Both the position numbers and the translations under genes were made by a program. From Actinomycetes bacterium (lineage in GTDB: Bacteria > Actinomycetota > Thermoleophilia > Gaiellales > Gaiellaceae), in contig JANMWV010000016.1 of the NCBI GenBank assembly GCA_031394165.1, forward strand, positions 1 to 31,120: a stretch of 31,120 nucleotides of DNA. Direction: 5' to 3'. Below are positions 6,557 through 26,962 of this stretch, piece after piece (positions within the stretch are counted from its first letter, which is position 1; each line of letters begins with the position of its first letter). The notes under the pieces are model-generated. The model ran no database searches, was not told the DNA's origin, and worked only from the letters and a program-made list of their open reading frames with translations.

Positions 6557-7087
6557 ATGGGAGCACCCGAGCAGGCAGCCGGACGGAGCGGGATCCGCGT
6601 GGAGCTTCGCGGCAGCGGCTCCGCGACCGTCGAGACCGGCTTGCCGGTGCTCGACCGCCTGCTGGAGCGGCTCGTCGAGTACGCCCGCTTCGACGTCACC
6701 CTCGAGGTCGAGCCGGGCACCGCGGAGGCCGAGGTCTCCGAGGCGGGCAGCGCGCTGGGCCGCGCGCTCGCCGGCCCACTGCGCGAAGGCCGAGGCTACG
6801 GCTCGGCGATGATGACCTCGTCCGAGGCGCTCGCGAACGTCGTGCTCGAGACGTCCGAGGCACCGCTGCTCGTCTCGAACGTCGATCTGACGGAGGCGCG
6901 CATCGGTGGGCTCGGCACGGACGTCGCGCGCCGTTTTCTCGAGCGCTTCACCGAGGGCGCCGGCGTGACGTTGCACGTGCGGCTGTTGAACGGCAAGGAC
7001 ACCCAGCACGTGCTCGAGGCGATCTTCAAGGCGCTCGGCGTCGCACTGTTGCAGGCTTGTGAGAGCAAAGGAGACGAACGTGGCTGA
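6557..7087 (+). CDS. Imidazoleglycerol-phosphate dehydratase (HisB/IGPD)-like protein, degenerate metal ligands
   Basis: Fold-typical segments VETGLPVLDRLL, FDVTL, SALGRAL, GYG...EAL, LHVRLLNGKDTQHVLEAIFKALG. The canonical DHM, HHxxED and first H of NxHH are not conserved. Confidence 0.75.
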   Translation: MGAPEQAAGRSGIRVELRGSGSATVETGLPVLDRLLERLVEYARFDVTLEVEPGTAEAEVSEAGSALGRALAGPLREGRGYGSAMMTSSEALANVVLETSEAPLLVSNVDLTEARIGGLGTDVARRFLERFTEGAGVTLHVRLLNGKDTQHVLEAIFKALGVALLQACESKGDERG

Positions 7088-7469
7088 CAAGACCGTCGTG
7101 CGCACCGAAGCGGCGCCTGCGCCGTTCCAGGGAGCGCCGTATTCGCAGGCGATCCGCCTCGGCGACTTCGTCTTCGTGTCGGGCCAGCTGGCGCTGAAGC
7201 CCGGCGACAAGGAGCTTTCGGGCGGGACGATCGAAGAGCAGACGCAGCAGGTGTTCGCGAACCTCGCGGCGGTCCTCGCCGCGGCCGGGACGAGCCTCGA
7301 CAAGCTCGTGAAGACCACGGTCTTCCTCCAGAACCTCGACGACTTCCAGGGAATGAACTCGGTGTACGCAGCGCACGTCGGCGACCGGCCACCGGCGCGC
7401 TCGACGGTCGAGGTGGCGAAGTTGCCGTCCGGCGCGCTCGTCGAGATCGAAGCGATCGCGCATCTCTAG
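7080..7469 (+). CDS. ridA: RidA/YjgF/YER057c/UK114 family reactive-intermediate deaminase
   Basis: APYSQAI, FVSGQL, KTTVFL, MNSVY, PPARSTVEVAKLPSGALVEIEAIA (catalytic Arg present). GTG at 7080 preceded by the SD AAAGGAGA. Confidence 0.9.
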   Translation: MADKTVVRTEAAPAPFQGAPYSQAIRLGDFVFVSGQLALKPGDKELSGGTIEEQTQQVFANLAAVLAAAGTSLDKLVKTTVFLQNLDDFQGMNSVYAAHVGDRPPARSTVEVAKLPSGALVEIEAIAHL

Positions 7470-7481
7470 AACCCCGCCCCC

Positions 7482-7615
7482 AGACGGCTGAGACCACGAC
7501 AGTGCACGCCTGGATGGTGGCTCATGCACTGCGCCGTGCGGCCGATCCAGCCTCGGCAAGGCAAACCAGCCTTACCTTCGGCTGACTCGTCCACACGGCT
7601 TGGCCTGAGCCATCC
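7482..7615 (-). ncRNA. Candidate structured non-coding RNA (three-way junction), family unassigned
   Basis: Helices found by hand (plus coordinates): 7483-7496/7601-7614; 7533-7541/7591-7599; 7548-7552/7580-7584; 7555-7562/7569-7576; 7499-7510/7519-7532. Non-Watson-Crick positions are A-C on + and therefore G-U on -. Confidence 0.6.
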
Positions 7616-7648
7616 CCAGACGCACCCCGCCGCGGCCTCAACCATCTA

Positions 7649-7655
7649 GAGAATG
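7649..7655. promoter_or_regulatory. Putative bidirectional -10 (GAGAAT on + for cca; CATTCT on - toward the candidate RNA)
   Basis: GAGAAT at 7649-7654 is 6 nt before GTG 7661. Same 1-nt-offset geometry as at the other divergent pairs. Confidence 0.4.
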
Positions 7656-7660
7656 GGCAC

Positions 7661-9094
7661 GTGAGGCAGGAGCTCGAAACCTACGTGCGCGGCCTAGACC
7701 TCGACGCGTATCTCGTCGGCGGTGCGGTGCGAGACGAGCTGCTCGGGCTCGACTCCTCGAAGGACGCCGACTTCCTCGTGCCCGGGCTCGACACCGAGGG
7801 GTTGAAGCAGAGGCTCGCGCCGCACGGCCGCGTCGAGGACCTCGTCGTCGCAAACCGGCTCGTGGGCGTCCGCCTCCATCCACGCGACAAGACGGTTCGC
7901 AGACTCGCGCCCGCAGGCATCGAGTTTGCCCCGCCGCGCAAGGAGGTGAGCACCGGCCCCGGCCGGCACGACTTCGAGATCGTCGCCGACCCGGCGCTCA
8001 CGGTGGAGGCCGATATGCGCCGCCGCGACTTCACCGTCAACGCGATGGCCCGACGCCTCTCGACGGGCGACCTCGTGGATCCGCTCGACGGCCGGCGCGA
8101 CCTCGAGCTACGGATCCTGCGCACCGTCTCGCCGCAGAGTTTCGCCGAGGATCCACTGCGACTCGTCCGTGCGCTGCGCTTCGTCTCCCAGCTGGGATTC
8201 GAGCCGGATGAGTCGACCGTGCGGCAGATGCGCGAGGAGGCGGCGTCGGTGAAGCTCGTCTCCGGCGAGCGCATCGGCGGGGGCCTGCACGCGGACGGAA
8301 TGGGCGAGTTGTCGAAGCTGCTGCTCGGACGCGAGCCCGCCCGCGCGCTGAGGCTCGCGCGCGACACCGGTGTGCTCGTCGAGCTTCTGCCGGAGTTCGA
8401 GCGGGCAATCGGCTTCGAGCAGGAGAGCCGATATCACGACCTCACGGTCGACGAGCACACGTTCGCGGTCGTCCAGTTGGCGGCCGACGCCGACATGTCG
8501 CTCTCCGTGCGGCTCGCCGCGCTGTTCCACGACCTCGGGAAGCCGCAAGTCGCCTGGCGCAGCACGGACGGCCGCCTGCACTACTACGCGAAGCCGGGCT
8601 ATTCGCAGCGCAGCCACGAGCAGGTGGGCGCCGATCTGGCGGCGGGCGCCCTGAGACGCCTGCGCTATCCGAACGCGCTCCGCACCCGGGTGACGCGCAT
8701 CGTGCGACACCACATGTTCCAGATCGGCCACGGCGACGCGCTGCGAGCGCGGCGGTTCCTCGCGAAGCACGGCGACGAGCTCGCCTTCGAGCTCGTCGAC
8801 CACAAGGAGGCGGACTTCCGCGGCAAGCGCAGCGCGAGCGAGGCTCCGGTCGCCGACCTGGAGAAGGTGGACCGCTTCAGGCAGACGCTCGAGCGGGAGC
8901 TGAAGAGCCCGCACCGCCTCGGCGATCTCGCCGTCGACGGCAACGACCTGATCGAGCTCGGCTTCGCTCCGGGCCCAGAGCTGGGGCACGCGCTGCAGGC
9001 GCTGTTGCACGACGTGGTGGAAGACCCCGCGACGAACACGCGCGACAAGCTCCTGCGTCGCGCGCGCGCACTTCTGCGAAGCTCTGGCACGTGA
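7661..9094 (+). CDS. cca: CCA tRNA nucleotidyltransferase (class II) with HD domain
   Basis: YLVGGAVRD, DADF, DMRRRDFTVNAMA, FAEDPLRLVRALRF, YHDLTVDEHT, LFHDLGKP, C-terminal LAVDGNDLIELGFAPGP. Confidence 0.88.
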   Translation: MRQELETYVRGLDLDAYLVGGAVRDELLGLDSSKDADFLVPGLDTEGLKQRLAPHGRVEDLVVANRLVGVRLHPRDKTVRRLAPAGIEFAPPRKEVSTGPGRHDFEIVADPALTVEADMRRRDFTVNAMARRLSTGDLVDPLDGRRDLELRILRTVSPQSFAEDPLRLVRALRFVSQLGFEPDESTVRQMREEAASVKLVSGERIGGGLHADGMGELSKLLLGREPARALRLARDTGVLVELLPEFERAIGFEQESRYHDLTVDEHTFAVVQLAADADMSLSVRLAALFHDLGKPQVAWRSTDGRLHYYAKPGYSQRSHEQVGADLAAGALRRLRYPNALRTRVTRIVRHHMFQIGHGDALRARRFLAKHGDELAFELVDHKEADFRGKRSASEAPVADLEKVDRFRQTLERELKSPHRLGDLAVDGNDLIELGFAPGPELGHALQALLHDVVEDPATNTRDKLLRRARALLRSSGT

Positions 9095-17956: not shown

Positions 17957-18843
17957 TGAGTCTCCTTCCGCGTACCGACGCCGAGCCCGGCCCCGGGGCC
18001 GAAGGCTCCCCCAGCGAGCACATCGGGGGGCGGGTCCGGGATCATGACCTTCCCTCGAACCTGCCCCCCGGGGCCGAAGGCTCCCCCAGCGAGCACATCG
18101 GGGGGCGGGTCCGGGATCATGACCTTCCCTCGGGCCTGCCCCCCGAGCACGGCCTGCCGGAGGTCGCCCGCGCCGTGGCGATCATCATGGACGGCAACGG
18201 CCGCTGGGCGAGCGCCCGGGGCGTCGGCGTCGCCGAGGGCCATCGCGCCGGCTCGCGCGCGCTGCGGCCGGTCGTCGAGACGGCGATCGACCTCGGTGTG
18301 GAGTCGCTCGTCGTCTACGCCTTCTCGACCGAGAACGGGTCGCGCTCCGTCGAAGAGGTCGAGGCGTTGATGGAGATCTTCGGCGAGACGATCGACCGTG
18401 AGCTCTCCGACCTCGCAAAGGAAGGCGTGCGCACGCGCTTCGTCGGACGGCGGGACCGCGCGCCCGACTGGCTCCAGGTCAAGCTCTCGGACCTCGAGGC
18501 CGCCACGGCGGGGGAGACGCGCCTCAATCTCTGGGTCGCCTTCGACTACGGCGGCCGCGCCGAGCTCGTGGAGGCCGCGCGGCGCATCGCCGAGAGCGGC
18601 GTCGACCCGAGCAACATCGACGAGTCGGTCGTCGCGCGGCATCTCTACGCGCCCGACATGCCCGATCCCGATCTCGTCATCCGCACCTCGGGCGAGCTGC
18701 GCGTGTCGAACTTTCTGCTGTGGCAGTCCGCGTACGCCGAGTTCGTCTTCGTCGACACGCTCTGGCCCGACTTCGGGCCCGACGAGTTTCGCGCCGCAGT
18801 CGAGGACTATGCGAGCCGCCGCCGCCGATTCGGCGGACGATGA
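17956..18843 (+). CDS. uppS: Undecaprenyl/cis-isoprenyl diphosphate synthase with a repeat-containing N-terminus
   Basis: VAIIMDGNGRWA, GH, YAFSTEN, DYGGRAE, PDPDLVIRTSGELRVSNFLLWQSAYAE, LWPDF, RRFGG. Confidence 0.93.
   Translation: MSLLPRTDAEPGPGAEGSPSEHIGGRVRDHDLPSNLPPGAEGSPSEHIGGRVRDHDLPSGLPPEHGLPEVARAVAIIMDGNGRWASARGVGVAEGHRAGSRALRPVVETAIDLGVESLVVYAFSTENGSRSVEEVEALMEIFGETIDRELSDLAKEGVRTRFVGRRDRAPDWLQVKLSDLEAATAGETRLNLWVAFDYGGRAELVEAARRIAESGVDPSNIDESVVARHLYAPDMPDPDLVIRTSGELRVSNFLLWQSAYAEFVFVDTLWPDFGPDEFRAAVEDYASRRRRFGGR
17991..18140 (+). repeat. Tandem duplication, 2 x 75 nt (73/75 identical), in frame, encoding (PGAEGSPSEHIGGRVRDHDLPS[N/G]LP)x2
   Basis: Copies at 17991-18065 and 18066-18140 differ only at AA/GG near the unit end. 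The unit contains short palindromes (GGGGCC-GAA-GGCTCC; CCCCC...GGGGG; TCATGA). Confidence 0.95.
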
Positions 18844-26887: not shown

Positions 26888-26962
26888 CGGGGTGTGGCGC
26901 AGCCTGGTTAGCGCGCTTGTCTGGGGGACAAGAGGTCCCGAGTTCGAATCTCGGCACCCCGA
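26888..26962 (+). tRNA. tRNA-Pro(GGG), CCA not encoded
   Basis: Acceptor stem CGGGGTG/CACCCCG, D-arm GCGCAGCCTGGTTAGCGC, anticodon arm CTTGT-CTGGGGG-ACAAG (anticodon GGG), T-loop GTTCGAAT, discriminator A followed by CT. Confidence 0.96.

Follow-up and report, generated by a model that had tools for sequence, protein, structure and literature searches.

A probable mobile hairpin repeat in the ridA-cca spacer of a Gaiellaceae genome shares its ends with an IS982-family insertion sequence and keeps its pairing on one strand

The DNA considered here, hereafter the window, comprises 31,120 nt (positions 1 to 31,120) of contig JANMWV010000016.1 from a member of the Gaiellaceae (Actinomycetes bacterium, assembly GCA_031394165.1). 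Between a ridA-like and a cca-like open reading frame (ORF) of the window lies a 166-nt element. We consider it very likely that this element is one copy of a mobile hairpin repeat, a transposable element of the miniature, inverted-repeat kind (MITE) that shares its ends with an insertion sequence (IS) of the IS982 family. MITEs are transposons that code for no protein and are non-autonomous. The interior of the element is not junk: it forms a hairpin that covaries and retains its pairing on just one of the strands. The element has no coding capacity, carries terminal inverted repeats that match the ends of an IS, occurs in dispersed copies and is polymorphic for presence and absence. It is a new MITE family of a known kind, found in a poorly studied class. 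As a mobile element it is ordinary; its one-strand constraint is unusually clean, and its inner module is shared across MITE backbones.

The ridA-cca spacer is 191 nt long, and its minus strand is predicted to form one long hairpin at minimum energy. For positions 7470-7660 the computed fold energy is -137.6 kcal/mol on the minus strand (z-score -11.9 against shuffles) and only -84.6 kcal/mol on the plus strand, which bears out the claim of an earlier note on this DNA that the spacer is strongly structured and favours the minus strand. The ends of the unit were set from an alignment of the 12 copies in the same genome with their flanks. They give a unit of 7482-7647, whereas the earlier note had placed it at 7482-7615 and so cut off 32 nt on the 5' side (7616-7647) that are used in the fold. 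The 69 pairs of this copy include 12 G-U and no A-C oppositions, and its fold energy is -121.7 kcal/mol. Its longest unpaired runs are the apical loop of 6 nt and a run of 3 nt, and there is no central bubble. A covariance model built on the 12 copies of this genome (R1) scores it at 170.9 bits over model positions 1-165. A small protein from the 59-aa ORF at 7466-7645 is ruled out. Only 14 of 72 copies keep open the ORF that begins with the ATG at position 3, length variants shift the frame, and codon periodicity is absent; thus the element is non-coding.

The spacer had been drawn in the earlier note as a three-way junction of helices P1, P2 and P3. The P2 arm stands, together with its GAA/GA internal loop and UGGUUU loop: it is the tip of the hairpin, and 92% of its cells (one pair in one copy) are paired in the other copies. 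P1 and P3 can be drawn in the window copy with 13 of 14 and 10 of 12 pairs, respectively, but the family speaks against them, with 63% of P1 cells and 73% of P3 cells paired in the other 71 copies as opposed to 97% for the corresponding stems of the single hairpin. The junction is therefore rejected on this family pairing; the minimum-energy fold is a single rod. Two of the four G-U positions that had been cited for a strand bias (7485/7612 and 7493/7604) lie in the unsupported P1. The statement that no known Rfam family applies was correct, as a search of the locus 7380-7720, at gathering thresholds and then at E<=10, matched none.

The element is repeated within its genome (G000; an assembly of 3.35 Mb in 608 contigs, 69.8% G+C). 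A genome search found 12 close copies of 78-89% identity, and in every one it is the same strand that folds better. An alignment that includes the flanks shows them to be sharply bounded (AGATGG...CCATCT, 165-167 nt), and the terminal repeats AGATGGTTGATGCC... and ...GGCATCAACCATCT set sharp boundaries in all of them. With an exact core-pattern scan of one genome per species, 25 further full-length copies were found in five metagenome-assembled genomes (MAGs) labelled Gaiellaceae or Actinomycetes. R1 gave 21-85 matches in each of these five MAGs, counting reverse-strand matches to the same copies, and had matches in 35 of 151 genomes, from 18 of the 41 genera of the order. BLAST had found no copy in 40 genomes of relatives and gave no match in 24 same-genus genomes. 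Since 35 of the 151 genomes turned out to contain copies once the covariance model was used, the BLAST blank is a limit of sensitivity. A second model (R2), built on the inner module, recognises at least 30 module-bearing loci in this genome, of which 12 belong to subfamily A, 6 to B and 12 to a third subfamily, C, as well as copies in another order of the class. Altogether we analysed 72 unique copies, namely the 12 of this genome, the 25 from the core-pattern scan and 35 found by the covariance model alone, the last group being unbiased for the core. Orthologous positions are rare, with only 2 of the 72 loci pairing up. At one orthologous locus, shared by contig C377 of this genome (L007) and genome G047 (L072), the flanks are 81-87% identical and a subfamily A copy faces a subfamily B copy, a pattern that suggests either separate insertions at a hot spot or the replacement of a copy.

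The pairing of the element is maintained with a clear strand preference. The sense strand, which is the minus strand of the window, folds better in 72 of 72 copies, with a mean of -120.7 against -90.8 kcal/mol, a gap of about 30 kcal/mol. Over 62 consensus pairs in the 72 copies there are 3752 Watson-Crick, 605 G-U, 12 A-C and 94 other cells. The 35 unbiased copies alone give 309 G-U against 3 A-C, and the minority variant is G-U in 38 columns and A-C in 10. These counts, with the folds, agree with the reading of the earlier note that the minus-strand G-U bias reflects selection on a single strand. When the 72 copies are aligned by fitting them to the model, pairing is found in 94.7% of cells, and both sides vary in 51 of 69 pairs (762 cells). 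That alignment was fitted to the structure; an independent MAFFT/RNAalifold run led to the same helix. None of 500 shuffles reached any of the measures, and slid controls paired at 31-43%. The three wobble pairs between GUGCGU and GCGUGC are retained in 67-71 of the 72 copies, where pair 25-150 is UG in 71 and pair 26-149 is GU in 69. The 3' half of the core contains CACCA, which 71 of 72 copies share without change. UGGU and ACCA, the motifs of the loop-loop pairing suggested in the earlier note, are near-invariant, ACCA being paired within the hairpin. Selection on the single-stranded fold of the minus strand, and not on a plain DNA palindrome, is supported.

One orthologous copy pair, with flanks about 89% identical, shows 12 differences, of which 4 are wobble-compatible changes in pairs, 2 break pairs and 6 fall in the few unpaired columns. 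Bases private to single copies include 13 double compensatory pairs, and also 17 broken pairs against 6 G-U. Since the private bases include this excess of broken pairs, it may be mainly the lineages that go on propagating, and not every copy in place, that are under the constraint. The orientation of the copies is also skewed: between co-directional genes 37 are antisense and 16 sense (p=0.0055), which fits selection against the stronger sense hairpin in host mRNAs. A mutation bias linked to the host's transcription or replication strand was considered as the source of the G-U excess and judged unlikely. Because the copies are mostly antisense, deamination of the non-template strand would yield A-C rather than G-U on the sense strand, and we infer that the orientations predict the opposite sign.

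The reading that we favour, though with only about even confidence, is that the constraint falls on a sense-strand transcript. In such an RNA-level reading, read-through from neighbouring genes would produce a sense-strand transcript of the element. It would fold as a double-stranded RNA hairpin of about 80 bp and alter the fate of the transcript, possibly through RNase III-type cleavage, pausing or stabilisation. That the copies between co-directional genes are mostly oriented so that the weaker antisense hairpin enters the host mRNA is consistent with it.

Presence and absence of the element can be compared directly at the ridA-cca locus. In most of the 12 orthologous same-genus loci examined the spacer is element-free and 21-57 nt long. 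The stretch occurs in four public DNA runs, whose Logan assembler contigs were compared with it. One contig (run X4; 1220 nt, depth 35) joins 7479 to 7649 with GG between. It agrees with the window at all 55 nt compared on one side and differs at 4 of 302 nt on the opposite side, and is an empty-site allele of a close relative. The summed contig depth over the conserved core is about 20 times that of the flanks. Four same-genus ridA-cca spacers (L045, L054, L050, L048) are enlarged by other material: one by a 225-nt stretch with short CCAGACCCGGG-like repeats, one by a hairpin-rich stretch of 105 nt and two by insertions of about 750-1000 nt. Insertions appear to land in this spacer repeatedly.

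The flanks of the copies define a target. TA stands at the left junction of 51 of the 72 copies, at the right junction of 40 and at both of 29, in a genome where TA makes up 1.0% of dinucleotides. Beyond the TA, C predominates as the adjoining base at the left end, and G or A at the right end, which makes the target CTAG-like. The site being palindromic, duplication and terminal sequence are indistinguishable in the copies with TA at both junctions. By crude gene calls based on G+C at third codon positions (GC3), the ends of the element very often overlap the TAG stop codon of the neighbour.

When this genome was searched outside the known copies for the terminal 17-18 nt, an end pair 981 bp apart was found on contig C6. 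It bounds an IS with a single ORF of 288 aa, which scores 142 bits with NF033520 (the NCBIfam IS982 family equivalog; cut-off 130) and 66.9 bits with PF01609 (Pfam DDE_Tnp_1). The IS carries the same 18-nt ends as the MITE. It has the size of about 1 kb, the one ORF and the terminal inverted repeats that are the norm in the IS982 family (PMC7335449). It departs from the family in one respect: IS982-family inverted repeats end in a conserved 5'-AC-3' (PMC7335449), whereas the C6 IS and its relatives have ends of the form (CT)AGATGATTG..., without a terminal AC. Seven more relatives of the transposase, 54-83% identical, were found in other genomes of the order. Their ISs have a CTAGATGATTGAT(G/T)CC-type start, which reads CTAGATGAGTAGTTCC in two of the seven, and CTAG is present at both ends in 5 of 5 whose right end was recovered. 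The 5' terminal repeat of the window copy matches the ends of these related ISs too, and end variants of the MITE, for example ...GATTCCACGG, track the end variants of the ISs. The same terminal repeats also bound an element with an unrelated interior and several end-only mini-elements in this genome (Table 1).

We hold with high confidence that the mobility of the element is that of a MITE, with an IS982-family DDE transposase most likely acting in trans; mobilisation by the C6 transposase in particular is suggested by the shared ends. By binding the terminal inverted repeats, such a transposase would place the element into the TA of CTAG-like sites. In this genome of 70% G+C these sites are mostly TAG stop codons and intergenic DNA, which would explain why the element landed just upstream of the putative -10 box of cca.

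Several observations weigh against this account or parts of it. Subfamilies B and C have no partner IS among those found: a search of G047 and G048 for a full-length IS with subfamily B ends gave only MITE ends and end-only minis of about 48 nt, and no IS982-family transposase was found in G047, G048 or G110 at the thresholds used, even though these three genomes are well assembled and hold many copies each. Among the 151 genomes 35 are MITE-positive, 13 transposase-positive and 5 both, which is about what chance would give (the 13 include the unpublished G094, which is used for no other claim). The window copy has no clean target duplication, its junctions reading TA on one side and TG on the other, and TA is also missing from the empty-site allele (...GCCC-GG-GAGAAT). 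A cut-and-paste DDE mechanism offers no reason for a one-strand constraint, and private mutations break pairs more often than they make G-U. For the RNA-level reading, a scan of 7000-8200 for promoter and terminator consensus sequences found none, in or at the element included, the consensus of the element contains no TA dinucleotide, and the orientation count depends on the crude GC3-based gene calls and includes a few orthologous loci. Orphan MITEs are common. In G047, 48-nt minis with subfamily B ends were observed, like the minis of the present genome.

The single-strand constraint itself could have a different source. In one alternative, which we think improbable, the element moves by way of single-stranded DNA, on which a Y1/HUH transposase (IS200/IS605 or REP-associated RAYT type) would act. 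Recognition by Y1/HUH enzymes is limited to the hairpin of a single strand, and such a stage would directly account for the toleration of G-T but not A-C oppositions, for strand-specific pairing with covariation and for a constraint on propagating lineages, as suggested by the private mutations. Y1_Tnp (PF01797) is indeed present in 5 of 5 MITE-rich genomes tested, three of them without an IS982-family transposase, but Y1 genes are common in bacteria and occur in 6 of 14 control genomes. Neither of the two Y1 genes of this genome has a copy, a terminal repeat or a loop motif next to it. Furthermore, the 18-nt terminal repeats are the same as the ends of an IS of the DDE type and share its symmetric CTAG/TA flanks, whereas IS200/IS605 and REP elements, which insert next to a fixed tetranucleotide, are not known to have terminal inverted repeats or such flanks.

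A second alternative, which we regard as similarly improbable, treats the element as a DNA palindrome whose single-stranded form has no function. Its pairing would be kept by template-switch (quasipalindrome) correction and recent common descent, and its core would be a double-stranded DNA binding site for the transposase or a host protein. Template switching can give apparent compensatory changes without selection. The core does resemble the terminal repeat (GATGGCTCAGGCCA against GATGGTTGATGCCA; internal core GGGGATGG/CACCATCC), and in subfamily B the same 8-mer, GTGCGTGC, is repeated in direct orientation on both arms. Neither process is strand-specific, yet G-U exceeds A-C by 605 to 12 overall and by 38 to 10 in polymorphic columns, and a bias from host transcription would, as argued above, run in the opposite direction with most copies antisense. 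In addition, the core stays unchanged while the terminal repeats change between subfamilies A, B and C.

The proposal of the earlier note, a standalone chromosomal small RNA (sRNA) gene with its own promoter, divergent from cca and either 6S/Ms1-like or acting on the CCA-adding enzyme, is largely refuted and hardly credible any longer, for although the strong minus-strand fold and the absence of an assigned family would suit it, the unit is a dispersed, multi-copy mobile repeat that same-genus spacers lack, the family does not support the three-way junction, and the supposed minus-strand -10 (CATTCT, 7655-7650) is the reverse complement of the GAGAAT/GACAAT box of cca. The resemblance to 6S RNA (RF00013) lies in the length (about 165-190 nt for 6S) and in the mostly double-stranded rod. 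The present element differs in having no central bubble with closing and terminal stems and no match to RF00013 at E<=10, and in being patchy, multi-copy and mobile rather than a single conserved gene, absent as it is from the locus of close relatives. A better 6S candidate is found on another contig (G000:C2:13566-13729, plus strand; L124), where the 6S model is matched over its full length at 37.1 bits (E 7e-6; gathering score 46.4), a plausible divergent 6S gene of this genome.

Returning to the MITE, its inner module is more widespread than its ends. Subfamily B, seen in G047 and G048, has diverged ends (AGAGGYTTGATGTG...) on the same architecture. It keeps GUGCGU, GGGGAUG and CCAAGC of the 5' half of the core, CACCA and the UGGUU loop, with many compensatory differences relative to subfamily A. 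The ends of subfamily C read AGTGGTTTGGCC.... More distant relatives retain only the inner 77 nt or so. The module runs from CCAAGC or GCGAGC through a covarying stem of about 20 bp, an internal loop with an invariant C-G pair and adjacent G and A, and an 8-bp stem to a GG-containing loop; in the window copy this loop is of the UGGUU type and is followed by GCGCMGYG. The module is also present inside TA-flanked MITEs of about 300 nt (L099-L106; genomes G058 and G026), where a second conserved hairpin follows and the end types are GGAGACTGTCAAAG... and AGAGCTGGTTTCGG.... It thus recurs in MITEs with at least 4 different end types. A search of 14 divergent relatives against Rfam at E<=1 found nothing relevant, and the suggestion in the earlier note of a new motif holds for these variants and the window copy alike; by the Rfam comparison, the motif appears to be undescribed. 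Tentatively, we raise the possibility that the 77-nt module is itself the functional single-stranded element, most likely as RNA, carried class-wide on MITEs. It might persist because the element needs it for its own spread, or as a portable regulatory hairpin for the host. If true, it would represent a widespread undescribed structured-RNA motif carried on transposons.

MITEs derived from the IS982 family have already been described (PMC9769881). The MITE of Cardinium, the endosymbiont of Oedothorax gibbosus, is likewise short, without a transposase gene and present in many copies, and as here its inverted repeats are very similar to those of an IS982-family IS of the same genome (PMC9769881). 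It is about 240 bp long and was derived by the authors from a parent IS, ISCca4, whereas the element here has 166 nt; the main text of that report makes no mention of a hairpin or secondary structure (PMC9769881). In the present element, by contrast, the interior shows no relation to the IS and folds into a one-strand hairpin that covaries, and the module is found on other end types too. The bcr1 repeat of the Bacillus cereus group is about 155 bp long and has mobile-element properties and non-conserved positions, as here, and compensatory changes keep its fold at the RNA level (PMC3184786), as in the 51 of 69 pairs of our element. Unlike our element, which is a single hairpin with TA/CTAG flanks and a candidate DDE partner and is known from DNA alone, bcr1 has 5-bp direct repeats, a cruciform-like fold with two stem-loops and a known transcript (PMC3184786, where NEMIS is also pictured). 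Our element is also like in kind to ERIC and Correia/NEMIS, though unrelated to them in sequence and host. ERIC of Enterobacteria and Correia/NEMIS of Neisseria are intergenic imperfect palindromes of 100-160 bp with terminal inverted repeats and TA-type duplication. They form long RNA hairpins when co-transcribed, and orientation-dependent effects on mRNA have been reported.

For annotation, the result removes a false sRNA or 6S-like call, and the two covariance models flag hundreds of copies in Gaiellales-type genomes. Copies that sit on stop codons or promoters can break assemblies and confuse intergenic analyses. With dozens of diverged copies per genome and near-perfect one-strand pairing, the family is a natural data set. 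It lends itself to asking why a MITE of the cut-and-paste type should be under an RNA-like constraint and whether regulatory hairpins are spread by MITEs, a question that goes back to the descriptions of ERIC, Correia and bcr1.

Table 1. Positions of the element, its parts, its neighbours and related elements. Plain positions are those of the window; positions with G000 refer to other contigs of the same genome.
Feature	Position	Strand	Remarks
MITE copy, complete, 166 nt, subfamily A	7482..7647	-	single hairpin, 69 pairs
5' terminal inverted repeat, AGATGGTTGAGGCCGCGG	7630..7647	-	matches the left end of the 981-bp IS on C6, AGATGATTGATGCCACGG
3' terminal inverted repeat, ...GTGGTCTCAGCCGTCT	7482..7499	-	complementary partner of the 5' repeat; right end of the IS matches it
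Inner module, conserved, 77 nt	7527..7603	-	model R2: 83.7 bits on minus, 21.3 bits on plus strand
Most conserved core, 5' half, GTGCGTCTGGGGATGGCTCAGGCCAAGCCG	7596..7625	-	24 consecutive columns invariant in the 12 copies of this genome
Core, 3' half, CGGCGCAGTGCATGAGCCACCATCCAGGCGTGC	7502..7534	-	near-invariant U.G and G.U wobbles with 5' GUGCGU
Apical loop UGGUUU	7563..7568	-	CUGGUUGC, CUGGUUUGC or GUGGUU... in most of the 72 copies
TA junction, cca side	7647..7648		other junction (7481-7482) reads TG on the sense strand
GAGAAT, -10-like box of cca, host sequence	7649..7654	+	6 nt 5' of GTG 7661
ridA-like ORF, upstream neighbour	7059..7469	+	from ORF list; element antisense to it
cca-like ORF, downstream neighbour, GTG start 7661	7661..9094	+	from ORF list; element antisense to it
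IS982-family IS, intact, 981 bp (L055)	G000:C6:922-1902		288-aa transposase, 18-nt repeats, CTAG on both sides
169-nt element (L056)	G000:C341:1200-1368		same terminal repeats, unrelated interior
End-only mini-elements, about 48 nt	G000:C158:1672-1719; C176:2465-2514; C578:2097-2148		same terminal repeats

The neighbourhood of the element is conserved within the genus. By tblastn, ridA-like orthologues of 75-87% identity adjoin cca in same-genus genomes, and cca-like orthologues of 65-80% identity are found in 29 of 30 of them, with ridA-cca synteny kept. A GAGAAT/GACAAT sequence stands 6-7 nt 5' of the cca start in 12 of 12 same-genus orthologous loci examined (L042-L054), all of them without the element. 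The GAGAAT box, which lies immediately outside the element, is presumably the -10 box of cca itself, and its position suggests that the cca transcript could be leaderless or near-leaderless, with its own promoter directly after ridA.

Elsewhere in the window, two 75-nt palindromic units at 18018-18154 (plus strand) match R2 weakly (E 0.016 and 0.06). As module copies they were rejected, being weak-scoring, generic hairpins that look unrelated. A tRNA gene (Rfam RF00005, 63 bits) lies at 26888-26962 on the plus strand.

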